64,000 bases of DNA from assembly GCA_018053845.1 (NCBI GenBank), contig JAGPKU010000001.1, positions 22,252 through 86,251 of the forward strand, written 5' to 3'. Source of the stretch: Syntrophobacterales bacterium (GTDB lineage Bacteria; Desulfobacterota; Syntrophia; Syntrophales; UBA2192). The notes beneath the pieces were generated by a model, which had not been told where the DNA came from, searched no databases, and saw nothing but the letters and a program-made list of their open reading frames with translations. Each line of letters begins with the position of its first letter. The first letter of the stretch is position 1. Shown piece by piece: positions 15,393-53,793 of this stretch. A program made the translations under genes and the position numbers.

Positions 15393-15490
15393 TTGAAGGA
15401 TTTCAGGGATTGAGCGCACCCGCTGAGGGTGCGCCCGAGGCTGCCGCCGAAGGGGCATCCCCCGAGGCGGACGGGATCCGACAGGAAACG

Positions 15491-19303: not shown

Positions 19304-19354
19304 AGAACCATTTCCCCGGCCGGCCTTGCGGAAACGAAAAACCCGTTGACCTTC

Positions 19355-32887: not shown

Positions 32888-34279
32888 TCAGCGGAGACTG
32901 TATTTTGCCAGCTTCAGATGCAGGCCCCGGCGGCTGAGGCCCAGCTGCCGGGCCGCTTTCGAGATGTTGCCCTCGCACTCCTCGAGCACCCGGATGATCA
33001 TCTGCTTCTCGATGTCCTCCGTTTTCTCCCGGATGAGCTCCTTGATGGACCGCTTCTCGTCCGGCGTTCCGGCCTGCGTCCGGGCCTCGACGGCCTCGAT
33101 GAGCTCGGCGGGGACGTCGCCCATGACGATCGTCTCGCCCCGGGCCATGAGAACGAGCCGTTCGGCGAGGTTCTCCAGCTCCCGGATGTTGCCGGGCCAG
33201 TCGTGATCCATCAGGAGATCCACGACCTCGGGGTCCGCCCCGGCGATGCGGCGGCCGAGCTTGCGGTTGAACTTCCCGATGAAGTAGTCGAGCAGGGCCG
33301 GGATGTCCTCCTTGCGCTCCCGCAGGGGCGGGACGTGGATCGGCATGACGTTGAGCCGGTAGAACAGATCCTCCCGGAAGCGGCCCTCCCGGACGTCCTG
33401 CTGGAGGTTGCGGTTCGTGGCGGCCACGAGCCGCACGTCCACCTTGATCGTCTGGATGCCGCCGACGCGCTCGAACTCCTGATCCTGGATCACCCGCAGG
33501 AGCTTGACCTGCATCTCCCGGGGCAGGTCGCCGATCTCGTCGAGGAATAGCGTCCCCTTGTGCGCCAGCTCGAAGCGCCCGGGCTTGCTGGCAACGGCCC
33601 CCGTGAAGGCGCCCTTCTCGTAGCCGAACAGCTCGCTCTCGATGAGGTTCTCGGCGATGGCCGAGCAGTTGATCTTGATGAAGGGGTTGTGCTTCCGGGG
33701 GCTGCCGGCGTGGATCGCGTTGGCCACGAGCTCCTTCCCGGTCCCCGTCTCGCCGGTGATGAGGATCGTCGTCGTCGTGGGGGCCACCTTCCGGATGATC
33801 TCGAAGATCTTCGCCATCTGCGCGCCGGACCCCACGATCTCGCTGCGGTCGATCTCGGCCGGGGCCAGCTGGATTTCCTCGTCGCTCAGCACCCTCGTCT
33901 TGACGGCCTTGCCGATGACGCGCTTGAGCTCCTCCTGGTCGAAGGGCTTGGTGATGTAGTCGAAGGCCCCCTTCTTGAGGGCGTCCACGGCCGTGGCCAC
34001 GGTCCCGTGGGCCGTGATGAGGATGACGGGGACGGCCGGGTACTCCTCGGCCATGCGGCTCAGGAGGCCCATGCCGTCGAGCTTCGGCATCTTGAGGTCG
34101 GTCACGCAGGCCGTCACGTCGTGGCGCTTCAGCAGGGCGAGGGCCTCGAGGCCGTCGGCCGCCGATTCGACCTCGTAGCCCTCCTTGGTGAGCATCGCCT
34201 TGAGCACGAGGCGCATGTTGACCTCGTCATCGACGATGAGGATTTTTTTCGGCGGGATTTTCGACACGCGAGTTTCCAT
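32888..34279 (-). CDS. Sigma-54-dependent response regulator (NtrC family: REC, AAA+, Fis HTH)
   Basis: KILIVDDE...DLKMP (REC), [14 protein letters not shown] (the GAFTGA loop), [20 protein letters not shown], and a C-terminal [20 protein letters not shown]. Confidence 0.92.
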
Positions 34280-39719: not shown

Positions 39720-39720
39720 A

Positions 39721-42700
39721 TCACCGATCCTCTGATGGGGTTGCGTCATCCGGCCCGGCCGATTCCGGTCTTCCCCGCTTTCCGGAAAGGCGCTCCCGGA
39801 TCCCCGAGAGTCTCTCTTTCAGAGCTGCCAGGGTCGGGTTGGGGCCTCCCGCAGCGGCGGCGGGCCCTTTGCGGCCCTTGCCGATAAAGGTCTCGACGAG
39901 CACGAAGAAGAGGGGTGCAAAGAGAATCACCAGGACGGTGGCCGTGACCATCCCCCCCAAGACGCCCGTGCCGATGGCATTCATGGCCCCCGCCCCGGCG
40001 CCGGTCGCCACGGCCAGGGGCAAAACGCCGAACCCGAAGGCCAGCGAGGTCATGATGATGGGGCGGAAGCGCAGCCTCGCCCCCTCCAGGGTCGCCTCGA
40101 CCAGCCCCATCCCCTGTTCCACGCCCGCCTTGGCGAACTGGACGATCAGGATGGCGTTCTTGGTCGTCAGGCCCAGCGTGGTCAGAAGGCCGATCTGGAA
40201 GTAGACGTCATTGGGCAGCCCGCGCAGGGTCGAGGCGATGACGCCGCCGACCGCCCCCAAGGGAAGGACCAGCAGGACCGAGATGGGGATGGGCCAGCTC
40301 TCGTAGAGCGCCGCCAGGCACAGGAAGATCACGAAGATGGAGAAGGCGTACAGCAGGGGCGCCTGGGAACTCGACATCCGCTCCTGGTAGGATACTCCTT
40401 GCCAGTCGTACCCGATGCCCTGCGGCAGATCCTTTATGAACCGTTCCATGGCCAGCATGGTCTCGCCGGAACTGCTTCCCGGCGCCGCCTCGCCCACGAT
40501 GTTGATGGACGGGAACCCGTTGAACCGCTCCAGCTTCGGGGAACCGGAGGTCCATCGTCCGGATGCGAAGGAAGAAAAGGGAACCATTTTGCCCGTGTTG
40601 TTGCGGACGTAGAGCCTCTCCAGGTCGTTAGGCAGCATACGGTAAAGCGAGTCGGCCTGGACGTAGACGCGCTTGACGCGGCCTGCCTGGATGAAGTCGT
40701 TGACGTAGGCGCTCCCGAAGGCCGCCGCGATCGTGTTGTGGATAGAGGTGATGGGCACTCCCAGGACGCCGGCCTTGTCCCAGTCGATGTCCACCCGGTA
40801 CTCGGGAACGTCCTCGAGGCCGTTGGGGCGGACCTTCGTCATCACCGGGTCCCTGGCCGCCATGCCGAGGAGCCGGTTGCGAGCCTCCATGAGCCCGGCA
40901 TGTCCCAGGCCGCCCCGGTCCAGCAGCTGGAAGTCGAACCCCCTGGCCTGCCCCAGTTCGACGACCGCGGGGGGCGCGAAGGCGAACACCATGGCGCCGC
41001 GGATTTTCGAGAATTCGCCCATGGCCCTGCCCGCCACGGCGCCGACCTTCAGGTGGGACCCGCTGCGCAGATGCCAGTCTTTCATCTTGACGAAAGCCAG
41101 CCCCGCGTTCTGGCCCCGGCCGGCAAACGCGGTGCCGGAGACAGCCATGACGGACTCGACGGCATCCTTCTCCTGCTCGAGAAAATAGTCCCTCACCCGT
41201 CCCATCACCTCATCGGTCTGCTCCAGCGTCGAGTTGGCCGGGAGCAGCGCCTGCACCAGCACGATCCCCTGGTCCTCGTCCGGCAGGTACGCCGTGGGCA
41301 TGCGAACGAACAGGATGCCCATGGCCGCAACGATCACGGCAAACACGGCGATGTAGCGCGCCTTGTCGGCGACGGATCGCTTGACCAGCCGCATGTAAAG
41401 GTCCCGGCTCTGGAAGAACCGGCGGTCGAACCACAGAAAGAACGGGCGCAGAAACCAGATGGAGCTCTCCGCCGGCTCGTGGCCCTTGGGGACCGGCTTG
41501 AGGAGCGACGCGCAGAGCACCGGCGTCAGGATCAGGGCCACCAGCACCGACAGCAGCATGGCGGATATGACGGTGATGGAAAACTGGCGGTAGATGACTC
41601 CCGTCGATCCGGGGAAGAAGGCCATGGGCCCGAAGACGGCCGAGAGCACGAGCCCGATGCCGATCAGCGCACTCGTGATCTGGTCCATGGACTTCGCCGT
41701 GGCCTCCCGGGGCGAGAGGCCCTCCTCGCCCATGATCCGCTCCACGTTCTCGACAACGACGATGGCATCGTCGACCAGCAGGCCGATGGCCAGCACCATG
41801 GCGAACATGGTCAGCATGTTGATGGAGAACCCGAAGAGCCCCAGGACCCCGAAGGTCCCCAGGATGACGACGGGCACGGCGATGGTCGGAATCAGGGTCG
41901 CCCGCAGGTTCCCCATGAAGAGGTACATGACCAGGAACACGAGGACGATCGCCTCGAAGAGCGTCTTGACCACCTCGTTGATGGCCACCCGGACGAATGG
42001 GGTTGTGTCGTAGGGGTAGATGACCTTCATTCCCGGGGGGAAGAACCGGCTCATCTCGTCCATCTTGTTCCGGACGTTTTCGGCCGTCTGCAGGGCGTTG
42101 GCCCCCGCGGCCTGGCGGACGGCCAGCGCGGCGGCGGGCTTGCCGTTGTACTCGGCCTGGATGTCGTAGGTCTCGGTCCCCAGCTCAGTCCGCCCCACGT
42201 CGCTGATGCGGACGACGGAGCCGTCGGGGTTGGTGCGCAGGGGAATCGCGGCAAACTCCTCCGGCGTCTTGAGCAGGCTCTGGACGATGATCGCCGCATT
42301 GAGGCGCTGCCCTTTCACGGCAGGCGCACCGCCGAACTGCCCTGCCGAGACTTCCACGTTGTAGGCCCGGAGCGACGCGATCACGTCCTGAATCGTCATC
42401 CCGTAATTGGTGAGCTTGTCGGGATTGAGCCAGATACGCATGGCGTATTGCGACCCGAAGAACTCCACCTCGCCGACGCCGGGAACCCTCGAGAGCACTT
42501 TTTCCAGATTGGACTGGGCGTAGTCGCGCAGGTCGTTGCCGTCCATGCTCCCGTCTTCCGAGATCAGGCCCACGATCATCAGCCAGTTCCGGGTGGACTT
42601 GCTGACCTTGACGCCCTGGGCGGCGACGACCTCCGGAAGATTCGCCATGGCGAGCTGCAGCTTGTTCTGCACCTGCGCCCACGCCAGGTCCGGGTCGGTC

Positions 42701-42993
42701 CCCGGGGCGAAGGTCAGCTCGATGCGGGACTGTCCGGACGAGTCGCTCACGGCGGAGAGGTAAAGCAGTCGGTCGAAGCCCGTCATCTTCTGCTCGATGA
42801 TCTGCGTCACGCTGTTCTCGACGGTCTCCGCCGAGGCGCCCGGGTAGAAGGCCGTGATGGCGATGGACGGCGGGGCGATGGGGGGGTACTGCGAGACGGG
42901 CAGATTGTAGATCGCAAGCCCGCCCCCCGCCATCGTCATAATGGCAATGACCCAAGCGAAGACGGGGCGATCCAGAAAGAATCTCGACAGCAT
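39721..42993 (-). CDS. RND multidrug efflux permease (AcrB/MexB family)
   Basis: [18 protein letters not shown]...[12 protein letters not shown]; 1090 aa with the 12-TM architecture. Confidence 0.95.
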
Positions 42994-43005
42994 CGGGCGC
43001 CTCCC

Positions 43006-44208
43006 TCAGTTCGACTTCGCGGCCGGTGGCGCTGCGGTCTTGCGGTCTCCCGCCTTCGCCTCCGTAAAGGGGACGGCCCTGACGGTGCTGCCGGGCCTGA
43101 CCTTCTGCACGCCCTCGACGATGACCCGGTCGCCCGGCGCAAGTCCCGCCGAGACGAGCCACTTGTCGCCGATCGTGCGTTCCAGAGTGAGCACTCGCTG
43201 CTGGACTTTGCTCTCGGCGTCGACGACCAGGGCAAGGGGATTGCCTTTCGGATCGCGGCTGACGCCCTGCTGCGGGACGAGCAGGGCCTTCTCGTTGACG
43301 CCTTCCTCCAGGACGGCTCGAGCGAACATGCCGGGAAGCAGGATGCGCTTCGGGTTGGGGAAAATCGCCCTCAGGATCAATGACCCGGTCGTAGGATCCA
43401 CAGTGACGTCCCGGAATTGAAGTGTCCCCTCCAGGGGATAGGGCGTGCCGTCTTCCAGGATGAGTTTGGCCCGCGCCCGGTTTTCGCGGTCCCTCTTGAG
43501 AGTGCCTTTCGCAAAGCTTTCCTGCAGCCGCAACAGGCTGGCGCTCGACTGGGTGACGTCGACATAGACCGGGTCGATCTGCTGAATGGTCGCGAGGGGC
43601 ACCGGCTGGTTGGCCGTCACCAGCGCACCCTCGGTGACCGACGATTTGCCGATGCGACCGGTGATCGGCGCGGTCACGCGTGTGTAGGCCAGGTTGATCC
43701 GGGCGGCCTCCACGGCCGCATTGCCGGCCTCGATCTCGGCCTCGGCCTGCTTGAGCGCAGCGACGGCATCGTCGTATTCCTGGCGGCTTACCGCCTTGAT
43801 TTCCACCAGCTCCTTGTACCGCTCCGCCCGGAAGCGGATGGAGGTCACGTTGGCCTCCGCCCGGGCGAGTGCCGCCCTGGCGCTGTCGTAGGCGGCCTGG
43901 TAGGTGGAGGGGTCGATCTGGTAGAGCACCTCGCCCGCCTTCACGTCGGAGCCCTCCTTGAAGAGCCTCTGCTGGATGATGCCGCTCACCTGGGGCCGCA
44001 CCTCGGCGATCAGGAAAGCCGAAACCCGTCCCGGGAGTTCCGTCTTGATCGCAACCCGCTCGGGCTTCATCTCCACAAAGGCCACTTCCGGCGGTCCGGC
44101 CTGCCCCTGCGCCTTTCCCGCGGAACCCTGGCCGCAGCCGGCCGGAATCCACGCAGCGGCCAGAAGCCCCGCAATCGCGATCAACCGGTATCCTCGACGG
44201 ATCTGCAT
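43006..44208 (-). CDS. RND efflux periplasmic adaptor (AcrA/MexA family MFP)
   Basis: Internal start MQIRRGY...AGC (lipobox). RVSAFLIAEVRPQVSGII and coiled-coil hairpin motifs. Confidence 0.9.
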   Translation of the reverse strand: MQIRRGYRLIAIAGLLAAAWIPAGCGQGSAGKAQGQAGPPEVAFVEMKPERVAIKTELPGRVSAFLIAEVRPQVSGIIQQRLFKEGSDVKAGEVLYQIDPSTYQAAYDSARAALARAEANVTSIRFRAERYKELVEIKAVSRQEYDDAVAALKQAEAEIEAGNAAVEAARINLAYTRVTAPITGRIGKSSVTEGALVTANQPVPLATIQQIDPVYVDVTQSSASLLRLQESFAKGTLKRDRENRARAKLILEDGTPYPLEGTLQFRDVTVDPTTGSLILRAIFPNPKRILLPGMFARAVLEEGVNEKALLVPQQGVSRDPKGNPLALVVDAESKVQQRVLTLERTIGDKWLVSAGLAPGDRVIVEGVQKVRPGSTVRAVPFTEAKAGDRKTAAPPAAKSN

Positions 44209-44219
44209 GCAACACCTCT

Positions 44220-44825
44220 TCAATTTGATGGGATCCCTGCGGCCCCTGTTCTCCTGACCCCGTCCCAACAGGCCTCGATGACCTGCGCGATCCCCGCGTC
44301 ATCCAGGGAAAGAAGACCCAGAATGTGATCCCGGATCAGGACGATCAGGGGACCGAAGCTCAGCGCGAAATGCATGAAAATGGGCAATTCCTTCAGGACC
44401 TCCTGCGCCATCCCCTCCTCGAAGATGCTCTGGAAGAACAGACTGCCCTCGTCCGCCTGGCCGATCAGGCGTTCCCTCTTGAGGGCAATCCCGAAGGGGG
44501 AGTTCATGTACTGCTCCATGTAGCGGAAATGCAGGGGGTTGGCGATGAAATAGCGCATCACCGCGGCACCGACATGGAGAAACCGCACCCGGATGGGGTC
44601 CGCATCGGAGTACCCCTCCCTCAGGCAGGAAAGGAGCCTGCCCTCCAGCTCCCGATACAGCTCGGTAATGAGCGCCTCCTTGCTCTCGAAATAGCGATAG
44701 ATCGTGCCGGCGCCCACGCCTGCCCGGTCGGCGATCATGGACATCGGCGCCCCGTGAAACCCGTGCTCCGCGATGAGCAGCAGGGCCGCCTGCAAGATCT
44801 CCTTTCTCTTGTCCGAGTTTCTCAT
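44220..44825 (-). CDS. TetR/AcrR family transcriptional repressor
   Basis: ATG at 44825. KRKEILQAALLLIAEHGFHGAPMSMIADRAGVGAGTIYRYFESKEAL is the TetR HTH. An 18-bp perfect palindrome lies 27 nt upstream. Confidence 0.9.
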   Translation of the reverse strand: MRNSDKRKEILQAALLLIAEHGFHGAPMSMIADRAGVGAGTIYRYFESKEALITELYRELEGRLLSCLREGYSDADPIRVRFLHVGAAVMRYFIANPLHFRYMEQYMNSPFGIALKRERLIGQADEGSLFFQSIFEEGMAQEVLKELPIFMHFALSFGPLIVLIRDHILGLLSLDDAGIAQVIEACWDGVRRTGAAGIPSN

Positions 44826-44851
44826 GGCCCGGTCTGTATGCCACCCATTTC

Positions 44852-44869
44852 GGAATGAACGTTCATTCC
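44852..44869. promoter_or_regulatory. 18-bp perfect palindrome, probable TetR operator
   Basis: GGAATGAACGTTCATTCC, 27 nt upstream of the tetR start in the tetR/FAS-like divergent region. Confidence 0.6.
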
Positions 44870-45053
44870 CTATACGCTCACTTTCCCCACCTGTAAAGGA
44901 TTTTTTTAGCCCTTTTGCTGTATACCCCCCTTCCCAGTGTGAAGCGAAGTACACACCCCCGAACCCCCTCCCTTGCCCCCGGCCACTGGCCAATTTGATG
45001 ATTTCAAAATATATTCCAAATAGTTACATTCATCTTCACGGATCGCAATTCCC

Positions 45054-45069
45054 TGGCACAACGGTTGCT
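45054..45069 (+). promoter_or_regulatory. Sigma-54 (-24/-12) promoter for the FAS-like locus
   Basis: TGGCACAACGGTTGCT is an exact match to TGGCAC-N5-TTGCW. 78 nt upstream of ATG 45147. Confidence 0.75.
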
Positions 45070-45146
45070 CATACACGGCCGGGTTGCCGGGAGGCGGCTC
45101 GATGTTCGAAGAGAGAAGAGAAGAAGCATCGAAGGAGACGACAGGA

Positions 45147-46091
45147 ATGGCTGACGGCAAGACCGCCATCGTATTTCCGGGACAGGGTTCCCAGCGACAC
45201 GGGATGGGCAGGGACTTCTACGAGAGCATCCCCGAATGCCGCCGGGTCTACGAGCAGGCCTCCGACGCCCTGGGGTGGGACGTGGCGGCGCTGTGCTTCG
45301 GAGAGGACGAGAGGCTCAACCTGACCGCCTACGCCCAGCCGAGCATCGTGGCGACGGAGATCGCCATGCTGAAGGCCGTCATCGAGAAGTACGGCATCAC
45401 CCCCGACGTGTTCGGCGGGCACAGCCTCGGCGAGTACACGGCCCTGGTGGCCGCGGGCGTGCTGCCGCTCGAGACGGTGCTGCGCATCGTCCACATCCGC
45501 GGCAGCCTCATGCAGGAAGCCGTCCCGGCGGGAGAGGGAGCGATGGCCGCCGTCATCCGCAAGGACCTCAACACCCGGATGATCCGCGAGCTGCTCGCCG
45601 ATCTGCCCATCGACGTGGCGAACATCAACTCGCCCAACCAGATCGTCATCAGCGGCCGCTCCAAGGCCATGCCCGAGGCCGAGGAGCGCCTCGCGAAGGC
45701 CCTGGCCGACGAGAACCCGACGCGGTTCGTGGCCCTCAACGTGAGCGCCCCCTTCCACAGCCGCTTCATGCAAACCATCGAGGAGCCCTTCGAGGGGGAG
45801 CTGGCCTGCGTGCGCAGGCAGATGAAGGCCGAAAACGCCGTAAGGGTGACCTCCAACTTCACGGGCGGCTTCCACTCCCCCGACAGGGAAGAGGTGATCG
45901 AGCGTCTCGTGGCGCAGCTCTCGGGCACCGTCCAGTGGTGCGACAACATGAGGGCCATCGCCTCGCAGGCGGACACCGTCTACGAAATCGGCCCCAACCG
46001 TCCCCTCCGGGACTTCTTCAAAACGATCGGCGTGACCTGCATCTCGCTGACCACACTCTCCTCCGCCGAGAGGACCTTCGCCGGCAACTGA
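45147..46091 (+). CDS. Malonyl-CoA:ACP transacylase-like acyltransferase (FabD-like)
   Basis: ATG 45147 after gaaggaga. Motifs: FPGQGSQ, GHSLGEY (Ser nucleophile), APFHS. Confidence 0.85.
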   Translation: MADGKTAIVFPGQGSQRHGMGRDFYESIPECRRVYEQASDALGWDVAALCFGEDERLNLTAYAQPSIVATEIAMLKAVIEKYGITPDVFGGHSLGEYTALVAAGVLPLETVLRIVHIRGSLMQEAVPAGEGAMAAVIRKDLNTRMIRELLADLPIDVANINSPNQIVISGRSKAMPEAEERLAKALADENPTRFVALNVSAPFHSRFMQTIEEPFEGELACVRRQMKAENAVRVTSNFTGGFHSPDREEVIERLVAQLSGTVQWCDNMRAIASQADTVYEIGPNRPLRDFFKTIGVTCISLTTLSSAERTFAGN

Positions 46092-46152
46092 CCGGGAAGG
46101 CGCCGCCCCCTGCGGGGATCATCCGAACACGCACACACGCAAGGAGAACGCC

Positions 46153-47355
46153 ATGGATTTCCGCCTCAGTGAAGACCAGCAGATGTACGTCGACACGGTC
46201 CGGCGATTCGTGAAAAACGAGATCCTCCCGAACATCCTGCAGATCGACAAGTCGCACGAGTTCCCCTACGGGATCATCGCCAAGGCCTGGGAGCTGGGCA
46301 TCCTCAACCTGAGCGTGCCCAGGGAGGTGAAGGGGTTCGAGATCGACGCCGTCTCCTCGGCCCTCATCATCAAGGAGCTCTCCTACGGCGACACGGGCAT
46401 CTCCACCTCGGCGATGTGCAACGACCTGGCCAACACGGTCATCGCCCAGCACGGCAGCGAGAAGCAGAAGCAGGACTTTCTGGGGCCCTTCGTCCAGGCG
46501 CCCCTGCTGGCCTCGTTCTGCCTCACCGAGCCCGGCGCCGGGTCGGACAACTCCTCCATGAGCACCTTCATCGCCAAGGGCGCCGACGGCCGGTACGTCC
46601 TCAACGGCGCCAAGTGCTTCATCACCAACGCCTCCTACGCCGGCCAGTTCACCGTCTTCTGCAAGGTCGGCAAGCCCACGGCGCAGCTGCTGGCCTGCTG
46701 CATCGTGCCGACGGAGGAGATGTTCCGCGACGGCAGGCCCAACCTGCCCGCGAAGCCCCAGACGGAGCTCACGGCCCGGGGCGGCGGCCGGATCGTCCTC
46801 GGCAAACCCGAGGAAAAGCTCGGCCAGCACCTCTCCAACACGGCCACGGTCACCTTCGAGGACGTGATCGTCGACGAGAGCCAGATCATCGGCGACCGCC
46901 GCCGGGGCTTCAAGTACCTCATCGACGTGCTCGACTACGCCCGGCCCATGGTGGCCGCCATCGGCGTGGGCCTGGCCCGCCGGGCCCTCGACCTGACCCT
47001 GCAGTACACCCGCGAGCGCAAGCAGTTCGGGCAGCGGATCTGCGACATGCCCGTGGCGAGGGAGACGCTCGTCGCCATGTGGAAGAAGGTGGAGCTGGCG
47101 GAGCTGGCCCTCATGAAGGCGGCCGTGAAGGTCCAGGAGCGCGACGAGGACCGCGGGATGTACTCGTCGCTGGCGAAGAACACCGCCGCCGAGGCGGCCC
47201 TGTTCTGTGCCAACGAGGGGCTGCACCTGCACGGCGGCTACGGCTTCATGCAGGAGTACGAGATCTCGAAGCTCGTGCGCGACGCCCACATCATCGACAT
47301 CTACGAAGGCGTGCGCGAGGTGCAGCACATGATCATCGGCAGGGAACTGGTCTAG
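46153..47355 (+). CDS. Acyl-CoA (or acyl-ACP) dehydrogenase family flavoprotein
   Basis: CLTEPGAGSD, FITNA, and IYEGVREVQ (catalytic Glu region). Contains a ~40-aa insertion (PTEEMFRDGRPNLPAKPQTELTARGGGRIVLGKPEEKLG). Confidence 0.88.
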   Translation: MDFRLSEDQQMYVDTVRRFVKNEILPNILQIDKSHEFPYGIIAKAWELGILNLSVPREVKGFEIDAVSSALIIKELSYGDTGISTSAMCNDLANTVIAQHGSEKQKQDFLGPFVQAPLLASFCLTEPGAGSDNSSMSTFIAKGADGRYVLNGAKCFITNASYAGQFTVFCKVGKPTAQLLACCIVPTEEMFRDGRPNLPAKPQTELTARGGGRIVLGKPEEKLGQHLSNTATVTFEDVIVDESQIIGDRRRGFKYLIDVLDYARPMVAAIGVGLARRALDLTLQYTRERKQFGQRICDMPVARETLVAMWKKVELAELALMKAAVKVQERDEDRGMYSSLAKNTAAEAALFCANEGLHLHGGYGFMQEYEISKLVRDAHIIDIYEGVREVQHMIIGRELV

Positions 47356-47398
47356 GCGCGAAGCGCCGGGCGCAGGAGAAAAAAACAGGGTGCGCCCG

Positions 47399-47473
47399 AC
47401 GGAGCGAGGAAGAGCGGAGCACCCCGAATCATTGCGTTATCCGAGCTTCCTGACTTCCCGACTTCCTGGCTTC
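47399..47473. repeat. Heptad hairpin element, family D, in the ACAD/KAS III spacer
   Basis: ACGGAGCGAGGAAGAGCGGAGC faces CCGAGCTTCCTGACTTCCCGACTTCCTGGCTTC. A 17-nt exact match (CCGAGCTTCCTGACTTC) to 52080-52096. Confidence 0.85.
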
Positions 47474-47525
47474 ACGCACGGCCGTCACTGGCTGTCACAA
47501 CAGGCGAAGGATCATCAAGAAGGCA

Positions 47526-48515
47526 ATGCTGTACTTACACGGACTGGGGCACTTCTACCCGGAAAACGTGATCACCAACCGCTTCCTGAGCGACCTGGAC
47601 ATCGGCTCGAGCGAGGAGTGGATCGAGGAGCGCGTGGGGATCCGCGAACGCCGCACGGTGCTGCCCCTGGACTACATCCGGGCCACGAAGAACCGCGACG
47701 TCCGCGCCGCCCAGGAGGCGAGCCTCTACACCAACGGCCGGACGGCGGCGGCCGCCGCCCGCATGGCCCTCGAGCGCGCGGGGCTCGCCGCCGGGGATAT
47801 CGGCATGGTGATCTCCGGCAGCTCGGCCCCCGACGTGGCCTCGCCGGCCGAGGCCTCCACGGTGGCCGCCGAGCTGGGGATCGACGTGCCCGCCTTCGAC
47901 ATGAACTCGGCCTGCACGAGCTTCGCGCTGCAGGTCCATTTCCTCTCGAACCTGAACCCGGGGGCCCTCCCCCCGTACATCCTGATCACGCAGCCCGAGA
48001 ACCTGACGCGCTGCCTCGACTACTCGGATCGCCGCTCGGCATGCCTCTTCGGCGACGGGAGCACCGCCGCCGTCGTGTCGCCGACCGTGCCGTCCGACAA
48101 GGTCCTCGACGCCACGCACTTCGACGCCAAGCCCTCCTGCTGGGACAAGGTGTCGATCCGCCGAACAGGCCACTTCGGCCAGGACGGCAACGCCGTGCAG
48201 GGGTTCGCCATCCGCAAGACCACCGATGCCCTGCGCGTCATCCAGGCGGTCAACCCCTCGCTCAACGGGCACCTGAAGTTCATCGGACACCAGGCCAACC
48301 TCGGCATGCTGAAAACCGTCTGCGAGCGATGCGGGATCGGCCCCGAGAACCACTGGCACAACGTCGAGCTCTTCGGAAACACGGCCACGGCCGGGGCCCC
48401 GGGGTCGCTGAGCCTTCATTGGCGGGATCTCAGGCCCGGCGACCACGTGGCCCTCGTGCAGGTGGGCGCGGGGCTGTCCTGGGGCCACATGATGCTGACG
48501 GTCAAGGAGCGCTGA
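47526..48515 (+). CDS. 3-oxoacyl-ACP synthase III (FabH-like KAS III)
   Basis: NSACTSF (Cys), IGHQANLGM (His-x-x-Asn region), GNTATAG (Asn). Confidence 0.85.
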   Translation: MLYLHGLGHFYPENVITNRFLSDLDIGSSEEWIEERVGIRERRTVLPLDYIRATKNRDVRAAQEASLYTNGRTAAAAARMALERAGLAAGDIGMVISGSSAPDVASPAEASTVAAELGIDVPAFDMNSACTSFALQVHFLSNLNPGALPPYILITQPENLTRCLDYSDRRSACLFGDGSTAAVVSPTVPSDKVLDATHFDAKPSCWDKVSIRRTGHFGQDGNAVQGFAIRKTTDALRVIQAVNPSLNGHLKFIGHQANLGMLKTVCERCGIGPENHWHNVELFGNTATAGAPGSLSLHWRDLRPGDHVALVQVGAGLSWGHMMLTVKER

Positions 48516-49114
48516 TGACCTACCGGGAATTCATGGACAGGGACCATTTCGATCTGACGGAGATCCTCGCGATCGTCTACGGCAACCTCGTTTCCGATGC
48601 GCCCCAGGGCATGGACGCGAAGCTGCCCGCGCCGCCGCTTCTCATGGTCGACCGGATCCTCTCCATCACGAAGGACAACCGCCACGGGGCGATCGTGGCC
48701 GAGCAGGACGTCCGGCTCGACGCCTGGTACTTCCAGTGCCACCTGCCGGGCGACCCGGTCCAGCCGGGCTGCCTCTGCGTGGACGCCGTCTGGCAGCTTT
48801 TGGGCTTCTACTGCCTCTGGCGCGGGGCCCTGGGAACCGGCAGGGCCCTGGGCTGCGGCGAGGTCTTCTTCAGCGGCCAGATCCGGCCCTACAACAGGGT
48901 GGTGCGCCATGAAATCGCCGTCAAGCGCTTCCAGCACCTGAAAGACTCCGGGGCCAGCATCGTCATCGCCGACGCGAACATCCTCGTCGACGGCGATCTC
49001 ATCATGACCGTGAAGGACGCCCGCACGGGTGTCTTCCACGGGATCGCCTACCCGGACTACCCCCACAAATCCAAAAACGCCGTCGGCGGCATCATGATGA
49101 AGGAGAAGCCATGA
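48515..49114 (+). CDS. FabA-like 3-hydroxyacyl-ACP dehydratase/isomerase
   Basis: ATG 48515 overlaps the KAS III stop (TGATG). LPAPPLLMVDRI, WYFQCHLPGDPVQPGCLCVDAVWQL (FabA His and Asp), GEVFFSGQIRP. Confidence 0.85.
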   Translation: MTYREFMDRDHFDLTEILAIVYGNLVSDAPQGMDAKLPAPPLLMVDRILSITKDNRHGAIVAEQDVRLDAWYFQCHLPGDPVQPGCLCVDAVWQLLGFYCLWRGALGTGRALGCGEVFFSGQIRPYNRVVRHEIAVKRFQHLKDSGASIVIADANILVDGDLIMTVKDARTGVFHGIAYPDYPHKSKNAVGGIMMKEKP

Positions 49115-49839
49115 GCGACAAACCGGTTGCCATCGTGACGGGAAGCGGCACGGGGATCGGCGCGGCCTGCGCGCGGGCCCTGGCGAAGGAAGGCTTCCGC
49201 GTGGGGCTGCACTACCGCAAGAGCGCCGGGGGCGCCACGTCCCTCCAGGCGGAGCTGGGCGACGCCTTCCTGCTGCAGGCCGACCTGGCCGAGATCGACC
49301 AGGTGGAGGCCCTGGTGAACCGGATCAGGGAAGAGGCCGGTCGCGCCGACGTCCTCGTCAACAACGCGGGCCTCTCCATCAACGCCGACATCAACGCCAT
49401 GAAGGTGGAGCAGTTCGACGAGCAGCGGGCCCTCACGAGGGGGATCTGGTATCTCACGAAACGGGTGCTTCGCCAGTTCATGCTTCGGAAGGGGAGCGGA
49501 CGGATCATCAACATCTCGAGCGTCGTGGGGCACACGGGAAACGCGGGGCAGATCCCCTACACGATGGAGAAGGCGGCCCTCGATGTCTTCACGAAGTCGC
49601 TCTGCCGGGAGCTGGCGGGACGCAACATCCTCGTCAACTCCGTGGCGCCGGGATTCATCGACACGGAGATGACGGCGGTGCTGCCCGGGGAGATCCGGGA
49701 GCGGCTCCTGGCCGGCGTGCCGCTGGGCCGCATGGGCAGGCCGGAGGAAGTGGCCGAGGCGGTGGCCTTTCTCGCGACGAAGGGATCCTACATCACGGGA
49801 ACCGTCATCCACGTCAACGGGGGGCTCTATGGCGGCTGA
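49111..49839 (+). CDS. 3-oxoacyl-ACP reductase (FabG-like SDR)
   Basis: TGSGTGIG, NNAG, S...YxxxK (IPYTMEKAA), PGFIDT. ATGA overlap with the FabA-like gene. Confidence 0.9.
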   Translation: MSDKPVAIVTGSGTGIGAACARALAKEGFRVGLHYRKSAGGATSLQAELGDAFLLQADLAEIDQVEALVNRIREEAGRADVLVNNAGLSINADINAMKVEQFDEQRALTRGIWYLTKRVLRQFMLRKGSGRIINISSVVGHTGNAGQIPYTMEKAALDVFTKSLCRELAGRNILVNSVAPGFIDTEMTAVLPGEIRERLLAGVPLGRMGRPEEVAEAVAFLATKGSYITGTVIHVNGGLYGG

Positions 49840-50302
49840 TCGCGAAACACGGCAGAAGGTCCTGGCGGCGGTTCCGCAGCAGGCCCCCTTCCGCTTCGTC
49901 GACGAGATCCTGGAGCTGGACACGGAGCACGTCGTCGGCGCCTATCGGTTCCGGGAGGACGAATGGTTCTACCGGGGGCACTTTCCCGGCCATCCCGTCA
50001 CGCCGGGGGTCATTCTCGTGGAGGCCATGGCGCAGACGGGCGTCGTCGCCTTCGGTCTCTACCTCGTCATGGCGCAGGGCCGGGAGGAAGAGCTCAAGAG
50101 AGGCAACCTGACGACGCTTTTCACGGTCATCGAGGCCATGGAGTTCACGGGCATGGTGGTGCCGGGTGAGCGCGTCATCATCCGGGGGGAAAAGGTCTAT
50201 TTCCGCAAGGGCAGCCTCAAGGCGAAGGTCAGCATGGAGAGGGAGAACGGGGAGCCCGTCGCCTCGGGCGTGCTGGCCGGCATGGGAGTCAACCTGCAAT
50301 GA
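49829..50302 (+). CDS. FabZ-like hotdog-fold 3-hydroxyacyl-ACP dehydratase
   Basis: PFRFVDEILE, FYRGHFPGHPVTPGVILVEAMAQ (FabZ His/Glu). 11-nt overlap with the FabG-like gene. Confidence 0.8.
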   Translation: MAADRETRQKVLAAVPQQAPFRFVDEILELDTEHVVGAYRFREDEWFYRGHFPGHPVTPGVILVEAMAQTGVVAFGLYLVMAQGREEELKRGNLTTLFTVIEAMEFTGMVVPGERVIIRGEKVYFRKGSLKAKVSMERENGEPVASGVLAGMGVNLQ

Positions 50303-51576
50303 GAACGAGGATCGTGATCACGGGTCTGGGGATCATGGCCCCCAACGGCCATGGCCTTGCCGAGTACGAGGCGGCCCTGCGGGAGGGGCGGTCGGGCATC
50401 CGCTTCATCCCGCGGCTCAAGGAGCTGGGGTTCGCCTGCCAGGTGGGCGGCGTCCCGCAGGGATTCGACGATCTCTGCCGGCGGTACTTCGACGCCGAGG
50501 ACATGCTCTCGGTCAACGACAACATCGGCTATGCCTGCATCGCCGCGATCGACGCGTGGCGCGACGCGGGCTTCACCGTGCCGAAGCCGGACAGCACGGA
50601 GGTGGACTGGGACACGGGGGCCATCATGGGCTCGGGGATCGGCGGCATGGACACGATCGCCGGACAGGTCGTCCCGAAGGTCAACGAGCACCAGATCCGG
50701 CGCCTGGGCAGCACCGTCGTCCAGATGGTCATGAACAGCTCCACGAGCGCCAAGATCGCCGGAATGCTGGCCCTGGGAAACCAGGTGACATCCAACTCGT
50801 CGGCCTGCAGCACCGGCAACGAGGCCATCATCGACGCCATGCTGCGAATCCGAAACGGGCTGGCGAAGCGGATGATCGCGGGGGGCTCCGAGGGGTCCTC
50901 ACCCTACATCTGGGCGGGGTTCGACGCCATGCGGGTGCTTTGCCGGAAGTTCAACGACGCCCCCGACAGGGCCTCGCGGCCCATGAGTGCGACGGCTGCG
51001 GGCTTCGTGCCCGGCTCCGGCGCCGGCGCCCTGGTCCTCGAGGACCTCGAGACGGCGCAACGGCGAGGGGCGAAGATCTACGCCGAGCTGCTCGGCGGGG
51101 CCGTCAACTGCGGCGGGCACCGCAACGGCGGCTCCATGACGGCACCCAACCCCGAAAGCGTCCGGCGCTGCATCCGCGCGGCCGCGGCCGACGCGGGGAT
51201 CTCGCCGGCCGATGTGGACGCCGTCAACGGTCACCTGACGGCCACCTTCGCCGACCCCTACGAGGTGAAGAACTGGGCCGCGGCCCTCGAGCGCTCTCCG
51301 GCGAACTTCCCCTGGATCAACTCGACCAAGTCGCTCGTGGGGCACTGCCTGGGCGGCGCCGGGGCCGTCGAGTCCGTGGGCGTCGTGCTGCAGCTCCACA
51401 GGGGGTTCATCCACCCCTCGGCCAACTGCGAAGACGTCCACCCCGAGATCTCGGCCTTCGCCCCGCGCATCCCGCAGTCGGCAATCGAGGACCCCGGGGT
51501 GAAGATCATCGCCAAGGCCGGCTTCGGCTTCGGCGACGTGAACAGCTGTATGATATTCAAACGATGGGACGGCTGA
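50299..51576 (+). CDS. 3-oxoacyl-ACP synthase I/II (FabB/FabF-like)
   Basis: MRTRIVITGLG, SSACSTG (Cys), NGHLTAT (His), LVGHCLGGAGAVE (His). ATGA overlap with the FabZ-like gene. Confidence 0.9.
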   Translation: MRTRIVITGLGIMAPNGHGLAEYEAALREGRSGIRFIPRLKELGFACQVGGVPQGFDDLCRRYFDAEDMLSVNDNIGYACIAAIDAWRDAGFTVPKPDSTEVDWDTGAIMGSGIGGMDTIAGQVVPKVNEHQIRRLGSTVVQMVMNSSTSAKIAGMLALGNQVTSNSSACSTGNEAIIDAMLRIRNGLAKRMIAGGSEGSSPYIWAGFDAMRVLCRKFNDAPDRASRPMSATAAGFVPGSGAGALVLEDLETAQRRGAKIYAELLGGAVNCGGHRNGGSMTAPNPESVRRCIRAAAADAGISPADVDAVNGHLTATFADPYEVKNWAAALERSPANFPWINSTKSLVGHCLGGAGAVESVGVVLQLHRGFIHPSANCEDVHPEISAFAPRIPQSAIEDPGVKIIAKAGFGFGDVNSCMIFKRWDG

Positions 51577-51707
51577 GGGCTTAAGGCAAAAGGCTTAAGG
51601 CAAAAACAAAGTACAAAACGGCGTGAGGCGTAAGGCATAAGGCGCAGGGCAAAGGAAGGAAACATTCTTCGTAGTTGCCTTAAGCCATGAGCCCTAAGCC
51701 CTGAGCC
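51571..51707. repeat. Heptad hairpin element, family C, in the KAS/ACP spacer
   Basis: GGCTGAGGGCTTAAGGCAAAAGGCTTAAGGCAAAAAC...TGAGGCGTAAGGCATAAGGCGCAGGGCAAAGG faces TTGCCTTAAGCCATGAGCCCTAAGCCCTGAGCC. It begins inside the KAS stop codon. Confidence 0.85.
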
Positions 51708-51729
51708 AATCACCGCAAAGGAGTGTGAA

Positions 51730-51978
51730 ATGGACGAGAAGAAGATTTTCCAGGAGCTGTGCAACATCCTCAAGCTGTACACGAAGAACCCCGAGCTTCT
51801 CGACACGGCGACCAAGGAAACCCATATCCTCAACGACCTGAAGGTCAACTCCGCGCGCCTCGTGGACGTGGTCATCAAGTGCGAGGACGTCTTCGGCATC
51901 TCCATCGACGACGACGAGGCGGACAAGATCCGCACCATCGGCGACGCCGTCGAGATCATCTTGAAGAAAGCGGCGTAG
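51730..51978 (+). CDS. Acyl carrier protein (dedicated)
   Basis: 82 aa, acidic. DLKVNSARLVDVV aligns with the ACP DSL phosphopantetheine-Ser helix II motif. Confidence 0.8.
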   Translation: MDEKKIFQELCNILKLYTKNPELLDTATKETHILNDLKVNSARLVDVVIKCEDVFGISIDDDEADKIRTIGDAVEIILKKAA

Positions 51979-52008
51979 CCTGTTGACCGGGGCCCATCCC
52001 GCGTGGAT

Positions 52009-52122
52009 GCGGAAGCTTGGAGGTTGGGAAGGGGTGAAGCTTGGAGAGGCCGAAAGCCCATCTCACGGTTTCCGCTTTTCCGAGCTTCCTGACTTCATCG
52101 CTTCGTAACCTCTGCCTTCTCT
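52009..52122. repeat. Heptad hairpin element, family D, in the ACP/acyltransferase spacer
   Basis: GCGGAAGCTTGGAGGTTGGGAAGGGGTGAAGCTTGGAGAGG faces CCGCTTTTCCGAGCTTCCTGACTTCATCGCTTCGTAACCTCTGCCTTCTC. Confidence 0.8.
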
Positions 52123-52334
52123 ACAGGCGCGTTGCATCCAGGCACTTTCGAAGAGACTGGGAAGAGGCGGGAACCGGTATCGGGGTCGGGTCAAGAAAGC
52201 GCGGGCAGTCAGTAAGCCATTCCCGATTGCCGCGAAGCGGCATGGCTCACCTTCTGAACTTCTCGCCTTTCCAACTTCGCCGGGTCAGGGGCATCGGCGA
52301 GGTTGGGGGAGAAAAAGCGCGGGCAGAACGGAAC

Positions 52335-53156
52335 ATGAACCAGAGCAATCAGAGGTGGCTGGCGGTTCAGGATGTGCTGAGCCGCCTGGCCGCCTTCCTC
52401 TATATCCCCCTCGTCGCCGTCGTCATCCGGCTGATGGGCTATCGGTTCCGGGACCTGAAGGCCTTCCGGCATCGGTGCCTGGAGGCGATGCGCAGCCACA
52501 ACGGGGGATGGCTCGTCTGCGCAAACCACCTGACGCTCGTTGACTCGGCCTTCATCGCCTATGCCATGCTGCCGCCCTGGCGCTACCTGTTCCGTTACCG
52601 TTGGCTCCCCTGGAACCTCCCGGAGCGGCGCAACTTCAACCGCAACCCCCTCGACACGACCGTCTGCTACCTGACGAAGTGCATCCCCGTCACGCGGGGC
52701 GGCGATCGCGAGGAGGTGAGGCGGACGCTCGAGAAGTGCGATCACCTGCTGAACACGGGGCATACGATCCTGGTGTTCCCCGAGGGCGGCCGCTCCCGGA
52801 CGGGACGGATCGACACGGAGAATTTCGCCTACGGCGTCGGCCGGTTCGTGAAAAACCTCGGCCGGTTGAAGATCCTGTGCATTTACTTCAGAGGTGATTG
52901 TCAGGCGACGTGGAGCTCTGTCCCGAGACCGGGCGACACCTTCACCATGGCCGCCGAGGTCTTCGAACCGGAGGGTGTCGCGTACAACGGTCTCAAGGCC
53001 CAGAGGGACTATGCCGGGCAGATCATCCGGCAGCTGGCCCGGATGGAGGAGAGGTACTTTGAGAGTAGGCAACGACATCGTGGATTTGACGGACCCCAAC
53101 AACAGGGGAAAGAGCAGGGACTCCCGGTACGTCAGCCGGGTGTTCACCCCGGCTGA
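52335..53156 (+). CDS. Lysophospholipid/1-acyl-glycerol-3-phosphate acyltransferase family (PlsC-like, HX4D)
   Basis: ATG 52335. CANHLTLVDS (HX4D) and VFPEGGRSRTG (FPEGTRS block). The 3' 98 nt overlap the next gene. Confidence 0.8.
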   Translation: MNQSNQRWLAVQDVLSRLAAFLYIPLVAVVIRLMGYRFRDLKAFRHRCLEAMRSHNGGWLVCANHLTLVDSAFIAYAMLPPWRYLFRYRWLPWNLPERRNFNRNPLDTTVCYLTKCIPVTRGGDREEVRRTLEKCDHLLNTGHTILVFPEGGRSRTGRIDTENFAYGVGRFVKNLGRLKILCIYFRGDCQATWSSVPRPGDTFTMAAEVFEPEGVAYNGLKAQRDYAGQIIRQLARMEERYFESRQRHRGFDGPQQQGKEQGLPVRQPGVHPG

Positions 53157-53793
53157 GCGGAAGCGGATCGAGAGCTTCCCGGAACCCGACGTGCTGCTCT
53201 GGTCGCTATGGGCCGGCAAAGAGGCCGCCTTCAAGGTGCTCGCGAAGAAGGACCCGGCCCTGCCCTTCGTCCCCCGAAATTACGAGGTGCACCTGGATGA
53301 ATACGGACTCCGGGGGACCTCGACGGACGCGGGGACCTGCAACCCCCACGTCGAGGGTGCCGTGCGGACCCCCGAGGGGACGGTTCCCCTGCGGACCTAC
53401 AGGCGCTGCACCTACATCCACGCCCTTGCCCTGTCAGAGGGCGAGGAGTGCTTCGACTACGTCTTCTGGCGGGTGGAAGTTCTGCCCGAGCTGAAGGGCG
53501 TCGACTCCCTCGAGGTGGAATCGCGCATCGTCCGCGAAGCCCTCAAACGCTGCGTGGCCACGCACCTGGGATGGAACCGGAAGGAGATGGAGATCCGGCG
53601 CACCGAGTCGGGCGGCCGTCCCGGCCCGCCCCGCCTGTACTACCAGGGCAAGCGCACCACCCTGGATCTGAGCCTCAGCCACGACGGCCACTTCGGGGCC
53701 TATGCCGTGCTGATGCCCAGTCCCGACGACAGGCCGCCGAAGTCCGATCATCCGGACCTTACCTGCCAGGCGGAGGACGCAGCCCTGCGGTGA
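53059..53793 (+). CDS. 4'-phosphopantetheinyl transferase
   Basis: TTG 53059, 4 nt after ggaggagagg, gives (M)RVGNDIVDL. WAGKEAAFK is the W..KEA..K motif. An alternative ATG lies at 53011. Confidence 0.7.
   Translation: MRVGNDIVDLTDPNNRGKSRDSRYVSRVFTPAERKRIESFPEPDVLLWSLWAGKEAAFKVLAKKDPALPFVPRNYEVHLDEYGLRGTSTDAGTCNPHVEGAVRTPEGTVPLRTYRRCTYIHALALSEGEECFDYVFWRVEVLPELKGVDSLEVESRIVREALKRCVATHLGWNRKEMEIRRTESGGRPGPPRLYYQGKRTTLDLSLSHDGHFGAYAVLMPSPDDRPPKSDHPDLTCQAEDAALR

Follow-up and report, generated by a model that had tools for sequence, protein, structure and literature searches.

A 64,000-nucleotide stretch of chromosomal DNA from a Syntrophobacterales bacterium (contig JAGPKU010000001.1; ~66% G+C; hereafter the window, whose numbering gives all positions unless a locus is named) contains ten genes, transcribed in one direction from the forward strand (45147–53793), that encode enzymes of the type II fatty acid synthase (FAS) families, a flavoenzyme of the acyl-CoA dehydrogenase (ACAD) family, an acyl carrier protein (ACP), an acyltransferase, and a 4'-phosphopantetheinyl transferase (PPTase). 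Our preferred reading, for which we judge the chances to be about even, is that this operon is an accessory, orthogonal type II FAS in which the ACAD would carry out reduction, the acyltransferase would off-load the product, and a two-component system would control expression through sigma-54. A bolder proposal, which we hold as a possibility and more tentatively, is that the ACAD represents an unrecognized class of enoyl-ACP reductase that would have replaced an ancestral short-chain dehydrogenase/reductase (SDR) in Syntrophales and would probably be fed by electron-transfer flavoprotein (ETF) or a bifurcating Etf.

A sequence-only reading of this DNA had listed ten co-directional genes of these families with intact catalytic motifs and had proposed profile searches of all ten proteins. 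We ran these searches, and the Pfam domains together with the translations confirmed the list, with the expected domain found in each protein (Table 1). In gene order, the domains were Acyl_transf_1, the three ACAD domains, ACP_syn_III/ACP_syn_III_C, FabA, adh_short, FabA again in the FabZ-like protein, the N and C domains of ketoacyl-synt, PP-binding, Acyltransferase, and ACPS. Translation revealed both motifs of the FabD-like transacylase, the Cys, HQAN, and GNT elements of the initiating 3-ketoacyl-ACP synthase (KAS III), the Tyr and Lys of the FabG-like reductase, and the Cys-His-His set of the elongating synthase (KAS I/II). The FabA-like protein was ~50% identical to the core of E. coli FabA, with the catalytic His and Asp aligned. 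KAS III matched FabH structures at 100–119 bits, and KAS I/II was equidistant from FabF and FabB, whose structures it matched at ~170–200 bits. The PPTase matched the ACPS domain (PF01648; E = 2.6e-11) and contained GNDIVD and WAGKEAAFK; these superfamily motifs were conserved in its orthologs.

Table 1. Positions of the ten operon genes, the promoter region, and the two-component genes in the window.
Feature	Position	Strand	Basis
Membrane histidine kinase; inferred sensor	34530–36056	-	HisKA, HATPase_c, hydropathy
NtrC-type sigma-54 enhancer-binding response regulator; inferred operon activator	32888–34279	-	Pfam, GAFTGA
Tandem upstream palindromes	44918–44956		Weak site 44918–44937, strong site 44937–44956 (GTGTGAAGCGAAGTACACAC)
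Sigma-54 -24/-12 promoter TGGCACAACGGTTGCT	45054–45069	+	Sole exact TGGCAC-N5-TTGCW match in window
FabD-like malonyl-CoA:ACP transacylase	45147–46091	+	PF00698; GHSLGE, PFHS
ACAD-family flavoenzyme, MCAD/Bcd-like; inferred enoyl-thioester reductase	46153–47355	+	PF02771, PF02770, PF00441
KAS III (FabH-like), initiating condensing enzyme	47526–48515	+	PF08545, PF08541
FabA-family dehydratase/isomerase	48515–49114	+	NF003509 match above cutoff
FabG-like 3-oxoacyl-ACP reductase, Tyr-x3-Lys	49111–49839	+	PF13561, PF00106
FabZ-like dehydratase	49829–50302	+	PF07977
KAS I/II, elongating condensing enzyme	50299–51576	+	PF00109, PF02801
Divergent private ACP	51730–51978	+	PF00550
GPAT/AGPAT-superfamily acyltransferase; inferred off-loading enzyme	52335–53156	+	PF01553; H-x4-D, FPEGGRS
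4'-Phosphopantetheinyl transferase	53059–53793	+	PF01648; GNDIVD, W..KEA..K

We compared the operon with ~85 related loci, using ~20 kb of DNA around the locus in each genome, and located the ten proteins in a non-redundant set of 82 loci. This gene-neighborhood comparison, which the sequence-only reading had called for, revealed a conserved order: the arrangement was constant on contigs whose flanks are unrelated. Orthologous versions of the operon were also present in Desulfobacterales and Dissulfuribacterales, and the operon is therefore older than Syntrophales. A scan at one genome per species with the acyltransferase as query returned 327 relatives; the best 80 of these were all Syntrophales-type metagenome-assembled genomes (MAGs), bar a few with doubtful labels, and the closest among the 80 was Syntrophaceae bacterium UBA5744. 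Orthologs of the acyltransferase (49–89% identity) and of the ACAD (71–81%) came from MAGs labeled Syntrophales, Syntrophaceae, Smithella, or Syntrophus and from Syntrophus gentianae. No operon protein was more conserved than the ACAD, whose orthologs were 68–81% identical across Syntrophales species outside the window's clade, and an identical ACAD sequence was present on many anaerobic-digester metagenome contigs, the six displayed sharing the window's neighborhood as well. Judged by these comparisons, the operon is a conserved Syntrophales module.

Gene loss has affected the operon more than once. The FabA-like gene was missing from 20 loci, mostly labeled Smithella or Smithellaceae, and KAS III was also missing from 4 Smithella-type loci among these. 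Locus L052 (7917–10753) is a decayed remnant in which the genes for the FabA-like protein, KAS, ACP, and acyltransferase alone are left; the ORFs upstream of it are unrelated and by eye resemble toxin–antitoxin or partition genes, and downstream lies a 1438-residue ORF whose N-terminal sequence looks ATPase-like and which, by eye, we take for a BadF/BcrA-type activase-like protein. A distant relative of this ORF, with BcrAD_BadFG and DUF2229 matches, follows the cluster in L091. Large proteins of this activase type occur near L052, L048, and L091 but are not a consistent neighbor, and we rejected them as a part of the system. Just 3' of the PPTase gene in 15 loci, mostly labeled Smithella or Smithellaceae, there is a 255-residue classical Tyr-x3-Lys SDR (for example, L038 11485–12252; loci of the L022–L055 type), followed in six loci by a GGDEF-domain protein.

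Pfam and NCBIfam searches of the operon's proteins found no FabI, FabK, FabL, or FabV homolog, in agreement with the earlier observation that no enoyl reductase of these types could be seen in the operon. L061, L070, L078, L088, L090, L091, and L092 have no ACAD gene behind that for the FabD-like protein; its slot is taken by an SDR of ~311–313 residues, with 313 residues in the four loci that came from the scan (L061, L070, L078, and L088). This SDR contains GYAA(I/V)SAAK, a Tyr-x6-Lys arrangement as in FabI and FabL and not the Tyr-x3-Lys arrangement. Its best NCBIfam match was FabL, it also matched PF13561 and, weakly, PF12241 (trans-2-enoyl-CoA reductase family), and B. subtilis FabL was its second-best solved relative. 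The best 120 matches to it were 63–100% identical, and the named sources among these 120 were Desulfobacterales (Desulfosalsimonas and Desulfatibacillum aliphaticivorans), Dissulfuribacterales, and related MAGs. Gene order in L091 and L092 is FabD-SDR-FabA-FabG-FabZ-KAS-ACP-acyltransferase-PPTase-KASIII, and the proteins shared with the window were all orthologous, at 33–69% identity. A reduced version occurs in the cultured sulfate reducer D. aliphaticivorans (L090 7317–15225; AUCT01000020.1), which has genes for FabD, the Tyr-x6-Lys SDR, KAS III, a FabZ-like protein, KAS, ACP, and a PPTase-like ORF and is without those for FabA, FabG, and the acyltransferase; this operon adjoins the gene for a sigma-54 activator that has no receiver, and by eye there is a CGGCAC-N5-TTGT element upstream.

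Because a Tyr-x6-Lys SDR fills the same slot in orthologous operons, we infer that the ACAD carries out the enoyl reduction of the operon; this positional gene displacement is suggestive. The FabL/FabI-type SDRs of Desulfobacterales and Dissulfuribacterales would then define the step that we ascribe to the ACAD, although the two enzymes differ in fold and in cofactor, the one being an NAD(P)H-dependent SDR and the other an FAD-dependent ACAD. The sequence-only reading had proposed that the ACAD may replace or oppose an enoyl reductase; replacement gains support from the SDR in the same slot.

The best PDB match of the ACAD was medium-chain acyl-CoA dehydrogenase (MCAD), at 238 bits, with Bcd at 197 and CarC at 174 bits, and its catalytic Glu, in the sequence IYEG, aligned to Glu376 of MCAD. 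An AlphaFold2 (AF2) model (pLDDT 79) had the three-domain ACAD fold and was matched by MCAD and Bcd at TM 0.85–0.89, fitting the reductive Bcd enzymes of Megasphaera and Acidaminococcus (1buc, 4l1f; TM about 0.84–0.89) almost as well as MCAD. The best NCBIfam match was the clostridial acryloyl-CoA reductase AcrC, at 262.6 bits compared to a cutoff of 640. The operon enzyme shares its fold with Bcd-EtfAB, AcrC, and CarC of anaerobes, in which an ACAD physiologically reduces a 2-enoyl thioester. Those enzymes, however, use CoA esters and are encoded beside etfAB, whereas here the operon is ACP-based and has no linked etf, and the operon ACAD scores far below the cutoffs of these families. A loop insertion, lineage-wide and present in all orthologs, had been put at ~40 residues; alignment to MCAD corrects this to a net ~21 residues.

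Several points weigh against a reductive ACAD and against the accessory FAS built around it. ACADs are normally oxidative and act on CoA thioesters. Positional displacement, suggestive as it is, is no proof of equal function. In the neighborhoods examined, no etf or other electron-donor gene was linked to the operon, so a reductive ACAD needs a partner encoded elsewhere. The ACAD's conservation, the highest in the operon at 68–81%, could reflect a role beyond the pathway. Its insertion is variable in sequence and was modeled with low confidence, for which reasons we rejected it as a conserved docking motif. Finally, neither the window nor the ~20-kb loci contained a canonical fab/acpP set from which this one would be distinct, though coverage of that size says little.

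An oxidative ACAD is an alternative that we consider unlikely. It comes in two versions: the ACAD would backtrack a saturated medium-chain acyl-ACP to trans-2-enoyl-ACP in the manner of FabX, with the FabA-like enzyme isomerizing the product to the cis-3 form, or it would turn an acyl-CoA from beta-oxidation into a primer for KAS III. In both, the operon would make unsaturated or special lipids from existing saturated chains and leave the enoyl reduction to a housekeeping enzyme. The resemblance to MCAD, with the catalytic Glu kept, is consistent with such a role, as is the position of the gene in most loci between those for the FabD-like protein and KAS III and near that for the FabA-like protein. 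Syntrophales, moreover, oxidize fatty acids and benzoate and have abundant acyl-CoA pools. FabX itself backtracks decanoyl-ACP within a single protein. That H. pylori enzyme, described as a bifunctional dehydrogenase/isomerase (PMC8626469), offers a precedent. However, the ACAD is kept in the 20 loci without FabA, including the 4 that are also without KAS III; backtracking would be redundant, as FabA itself can make trans-2-decenoyl-ACP; and orthologous operons hold in the same slot a Tyr-x6-Lys SDR, which is of the one-way NAD(P)H enoyl reductase type. An operon with an oxidative ACAD would, moreover, carry private copies of every step but the reductase.

Regulation supplies the second body of evidence for a conditional, accessory FAS. 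The sequence-only reading had placed a consensus sigma-54 promoter before the operon, and this element, TGGCACAACGGTTGCT, proved to be the sole exact consensus match in the 64 kb, where 0.01 would be expected by chance, and to be conserved across loci. Counting elements with at least 9 of 11 consensus positions plus GG/GC, we found a -24/-12 element in 37 of 52 loci, compared to 0.03 expected; it lies 34–90 nt 5' of the start of the FabD-like gene. Farther upstream lie palindromes of a family with the consensus GTGCGAA-N6-TTCGCAC; matches at 10 or more of the 14 positions were present in 42 of 44 loci, 113–150 nt upstream of the -24 element (background, 0.066 per 200 nt), and were often paired, 19–20 nt apart. 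These palindromes are apparently the sites at which the activator is predicted to bind.

The activator encoded in the window comprises a receiver, an AAA+ domain, and a Fis-type helix-turn-helix (HTH), matching Response_reg, Sigma54_activat, AAA_lid_14, and HTH_8 in Pfam, with GAFTGA at residue 223. It was 84% identical to the activator that adjoins the operon in the sister locus L013, and its orthologs flank the operon in about 19–20 loci, plus Syntrophus gentianae. The kinase has ~8 hydrophobic segments and no periplasmic domain in its hydropathy profile; HisKA and HATPase_c lie in its C-terminal half alone, and the sensor half had no Pfam match. It was 83% identical over 507 residues to the L013 kinase adjoining the operon, and a divergently transcribed kinase adjoins the operon in about 18–22 loci. 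The kinase and the sigma-54 activator are the operon's commonest neighbors, and the layout in S. gentianae is the same. In the window, the pair lies ~9 kb upstream of the operon, displaced by an efflux operon and two other genes; this insertion is limited to the window's clade (L001, L010–L012) and missing from L013, and the upstream sites at 44918–44956 have been retained despite it.

The comparative evidence apparently amounts to a full sigma-54 circuit of kinase, activator, upstream sites, and promoter, and conservation of these parts across loci strengthens the earlier suggestion that the operon may be expressed conditionally from a sigma-54 promoter. The arrangement resembles that of NtrC-family sigma-54 regulons, with their receiver-AAA+(GAFTGA)-HTH activator, partner kinase, tandem palindromes, and -24/-12 promoter, but differs in that the kinase sensor is a multi-pass membrane domain without a Pfam match. 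We are not aware of an NtrC-type system described as having a FAS-type target operon. A search upstream of the SDR-type operons L090–L092 found no strict sigma-54 consensus; TGGCA(C/T)-N5-TTGT-like elements are visible there by eye only. The efflux operon between the two-component pair and the FAS operon in the window (TetR-MFP-RND-OMF; 38319–44869, reverse strand) was rejected as a part of the system, being a clade-specific insertion. A perfect 18-bp palindrome, GGAATGAACGTTCATTCC, at 44852–44869, just 5' of the TetR start, is a candidate operator.

We scored the ten proteins against NCBIfam equivalog models for the housekeeping enzymes. Bit scores, compared to the respective cutoffs, were 253.7 to 260.9 for FabD (TIGR00128), 148.5 to 292.1 for FabH, 237.2 to 297.75 for FabG (TIGR01830), 76.2 to 155.15 for FabZ (TIGR01750), 299.3 to 493.75 for FabF, and 248 to 630 for FabB. 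The FabA-like protein alone passed (NF003509; 188.5 to 124), and the FabD, FabH, FabG, FabZ, and FabF levels that mark a housekeeping FAS were not reached. The ACP fell below every NCBIfam ACP cutoff (best scores, 53.6 compared to 70 and 41.8 compared to 70.45) and was 29–35% identical to E. coli AcpP. Its serine lies in DLKVNSA, so that NSA replaces DSL; the five cluster ACPs displayed all share the same DLKVNSARLVDV motif. The window's ACP thus has neither the DSL motif nor the TIGR00517/NF00215x scores of a canonical AcpP. A tblastn search of the window and the loci with E. coli AcpP and the ten proteins found the cluster genes only, plus one KAS gene linked to bioF in L023. The rest of the 64-kb window is ordinary housekeeping DNA without fab or etf genes.

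An accessory role is favored because the scores are below the cutoffs, the ACP is divergent, the promoter is of an activator-dependent class, and genes have dropped out of the operon repeatedly. Comparison with the canonical FAS cluster (plsX-fabH-fabD-fabG-acpP-fabF, with fabZ, fabA, and fabI elsewhere) shows the same families, chemistry, and intact catalytic residues. The Syntrophales operon differs in its divergent private ACP, its own PPTase, an ACAD in place of FabI/K/L/V, an in-operon acyltransferase, sigma-54/two-component control, and sub-equivalog scores for all but the FabA-like protein. Together, these comparisons support the view that these genes are paralogs of the housekeeping fab set.

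It is distinctly unlikely, in our estimation, that the operon is instead the housekeeping FAS of Syntrophales, with the divergent ACP as the main ACP and the ACAD as the only enoyl-ACP reductase. Such a role would fit the order-wide conservation of the operon at high sequence identity, a complete cycle encoded together with a PPTase, a FabD-like score almost at the equivalog cutoff, and a FabA-like protein that passes one FabA model, and neither the window nor any ~20-kb locus showed a canonical fab gene. Coverage of ~20 kb per genome, however, makes that absence say little. A housekeeping role is also hard to reconcile with a strictly activator-dependent promoter that has a dedicated two-component system, with an ACP that fails all ACP equivalog models and has no DSL motif, with the absence of FabA, KAS III, or most of the operon in some lineages, and with an operon that contains no acc or plsX genes.

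The gene content also invites comparison with aryl-polyene (APE) and flexirubin clusters, in which a ketosynthase (KS), a ketoreductase (KR), and two dehydratases acting without enoyl reduction would build a conjugated chain and the acyltransferase would anchor it to a lipid. The operon does share with APE clusters an ACP, a KS, a KR, a pair of hot-dog dehydratases, and an acyltransferase of family PF01553; weak ApeI- and ApeP-like matches had been precomputed for the FabZ-like protein, and the FabG-like protein has a sub-threshold match to the flexirubin FlxB model. Nevertheless, we regard a polyene product as highly improbable. Unlike APE clusters, the operon and its conserved flanks have no KS/chain-length-factor pair, adenylating aryl-starter ligase, thioesterase, glycosyltransferase, or methyltransferase, and no LolA/MMPL export genes are linked to it, the LolA-family gene of the window being 37 kb away. 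A reductase-type enzyme, either the ACAD or the Tyr-x6-Lys SDR, is fixed in the operon, and the FabA-like protein is a true FabA homolog, close to FabA and not of the ApeI/ApeP type. We therefore rejected an aryl-polyene assignment, as the defining accessory genes are absent from the ten genes and their conserved neighbors. The sequence-only reading had named aryl-polyene, flexirubin, and biotin–pimelate families as identities to be checked; the aryl-polyene and biotin readings are both disfavored.

Scarcely credible, to our minds, is a supply of pimeloyl-ACP for biotin, raised earlier by analogy to the ACP/FabF/FabG/FabZ-type genes of Desulfovibrio bio loci. The genes birA and bioY and the ECF genes do lie 1–4 kb downstream in the window, as had been noted (birA-bioY at 1 kb), and the cluster in L023 borders on a bioF gene that is accompanied by KAS and hot-dog genes of its own. 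The birA-bioY-ECF group, however, is on the opposite strand, convergent with the operon and separated from it by an RNase D-like gene, and this synteny is limited to 8 loci of the window's clade. The L023 set (11535–14315, reverse strand; bioF, a hot-dog protein, and a 408-residue KAS) is convergent with the cluster and appears to be a separate entity because its KAS is only 31% identical to the operon KAS; it looks like the Desulfovibrio-type biotin-associated FAS-like genes and is distinct from the operon. Pimelate synthesis has no place for a membrane acyltransferase, a FabA-like gene, or sigma-54/two-component control, and no bioC, bioH, bioW, or bioI gene is linked. The biotin alternative is thus disfavored, and we rejected the link as lineage-specific synteny.

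If the operon is an accessory FAS, its acyltransferase would determine where the chain goes. The H-x4-D motif (NHLTLVD) and FPEGGRS of this protein were invariant in the ortholog alignment (PF01553; E = 5e-12), and its AF2 model (pLDDT 80) has a long N-terminal hydrophobic helix and a disordered tail. Among 50 listed structural matches, human GPAT1 (8E4Y; E = 1.7e-5) was the sole significant one. T. maritima PlsC (5KYM) was matched by sequence at E = 0.18 and was absent among the 50 structural matches, and the protein scored 33 bits compared to a cutoff of 103 on the PlsC model TIGR00530, below the equivalog level. A sequence search of solved structures gave no informative match for either the acyltransferase or the PPTase. 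With 132 representatives at E of 1e-30 or lower among 1.84 billion, the acyltransferase family is small and discrete, and the enzyme seems best described as a distinct member of the GPAT/AGPAT superfamily. The earlier label of a PlsC-type acyltransferase therefore holds for the motifs and the superfamily and not for PlsC itself. Of the broader hypothesis, that a conditionally expressed pathway transfers a specialized acyl chain to a lysolipid, the conditional expression is the part that gained support.

In two sets of loci, neighboring genes have lipid-related functions. An SDR-type operon is preceded on its own strand by genes for a thioesterase of the YbgC/FadM type and a glycerol-3-phosphate acyltransferase resembling PlsY (L078 2315–3403). 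MlaE/MlaD-type lipid-transport genes and a putative lipoprotein gene follow the PPTase gene, again on the same strand, in L093 (Syntrophus gentianae; MlaE/MlaD-type genes at 11541–14434), L020, L025, and L073, four Syntrophus-clade loci in all. The PlsY- and YbgC-like genes and the MlaE/MlaD-type neighbors may be weak hints of a glycerolipid destination.

Several genes of the operon overlap. Four overlapping junctions proposed earlier (48513–48517, 49111–49114, 49829–49839, and 50299–50302) match the ORF coordinates, and a fifth overlap emerged when the starts were revised. Ortholog alignment places the acyltransferase start at an ATG at 52335. The PPTase start is a TTG at 53059, within the acyltransferase ORF; the PPTase must start there because its conserved GNDIVD is encoded within the 3' end of that ORF, in the region of the acyltransferase's disordered C-terminal tail. 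The resulting 98-nt out-of-frame overlap was kept in 57 of 58 loci (median, ~98 nt). Gene callers place the PPTase start too late, at 53140, and the catalytic GNDIVD is lost from automated gene calls.

Some spacers, by comparison, are unusually long, and an Rfam search of the operon's long spacers found no known RNA element. The KAS–ACP spacer contains, at 51571–51707, a 41-nt imperfect inverted repeat of AAGGC-type units with a predicted hairpin of -64.6 kcal/mol (z = -5.5). In L011 and L015 this spacer likewise contains a repeat hairpin of a similar kind, but in most loci it is short. This hairpin is probably a lineage-specific REP-like element and possibly influences the stability of the ACP mRNA. 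A 17-mer, CCGAGCTTCCTGACTTC, occurs at 47441–47457 and 52080–52096, in two of the unusually long operon spacers, and at 25705–25721 on the reverse strand; at up to 3 mismatches it has 4 matches in the window, compared to 0.34 expected. At 47446–47476 there are three CTTCCYGRCTTC repeats with 8-nt spacing.

Two known systems resemble the proposed accessory FAS in part. The rhizobial acpXL-fabZXL-fabF2XL-fabF1XL-adh-lpxXL cluster makes the very-long-chain fatty acid of lipid A and likewise sets aside a special ACP, condensing and dehydrating enzymes, and an acyltransferase for one chain that goes to one lipid acceptor. The Syntrophales operon differs in having a PF01553 acyltransferase rather than one of the LpxL type, with nothing pointing to lipid A, and in adding FabD, KAS III, FabG, a reductase, a PPTase, and sigma-54/two-component control. 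The second system is the fabI-fabN-fabO module of E. faecalis with the auxiliary AcpB (PMC9671860, PMC6509188). It too is a second, partial FAS set that serves one class of products, the unsaturated fatty acids, and has its own enoyl reductase and an atypical second ACP. The families of its reductase and isomerase, its regulation, and the phylum are different, and the E. faecalis module is not known to include an acyltransferase or PPTase.

In the mechanism that we propose, the multi-pass membrane kinase would phosphorylate the NtrC-type activator, which would then bind the tandem GTGCGAA-N6-TTCGCAC sites and open the sigma-54 promoter. The PPTase would prime the private, highly divergent ACP, the FabD-like enzyme would load malonate, and KAS III and KAS I/II would catalyze the condensations. 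The FabG-like enzyme would reduce the 3-oxo group, the FabZ-like enzyme would dehydrate the product, and the FabA-like enzyme, where present, would dehydrate and introduce a cis double bond. The ACAD would perform the enoyl reduction that is performed by the Tyr-x6-Lys SDR in other Desulfobacterota, with electrons presumably drawn from ETF or another reduced carrier encoded elsewhere. Once complete, the acyl chain would be passed by the acyltransferase from the private ACP to an acceptor of the glycerolipid type, and the net effect would be signal-dependent remodeling of membrane lipids.

Elsewhere in the window, a 1577-residue ORF (14570–19303) has Pfam matches to GATase_6 and SIS (GlmS-like) in its middle third only and is probably a high-G+C read-through artifact around a glmS-type gene. 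A 442-residue ORF at 19346–20674 had no Pfam match.

Full-text literature searches found no publication on this operon. FAS-like clusters with a private ACP and a dedicated acyltransferase are already known, as are second FAS modules that contain a reductase. What is new, on the comparative evidence presented here, is an order-wide Syntrophales operon with a predicted complete circuit of kinase, activator, binding sites, and sigma-54 promoter, the presence of an ACAD in the reductase slot, and the conserved overlap, by 98 nt, between the genes for the acyltransferase and the PPTase. The circuit stands independently of the ACAD question, as a sensor kinase, activator, site consensus, and promoter that would drive a private-ACP lipid pathway.

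The pathway appears to be present in hundreds of species of Syntrophales, an order that is key in anaerobic digesters and in methanogenic hydrocarbon degradation, and variants have cultured carriers in Syntrophus gentianae and Desulfatibacillum aliphaticivorans. Enoyl reduction is the bacterial FAS step with the greatest diversity of enzymes (FabI, FabL, FabV, and FabK) and is a major antibiotic target. If our proposal for the ACAD is true, an ACAD-type reductase would constitute a new class and would link ETF-based electron transfer to lipid synthesis in organisms at the thermodynamic limit; through it, an energy-limited syntroph would couple its flavin-based electron economy to the step of lipid synthesis that is most exergonic.

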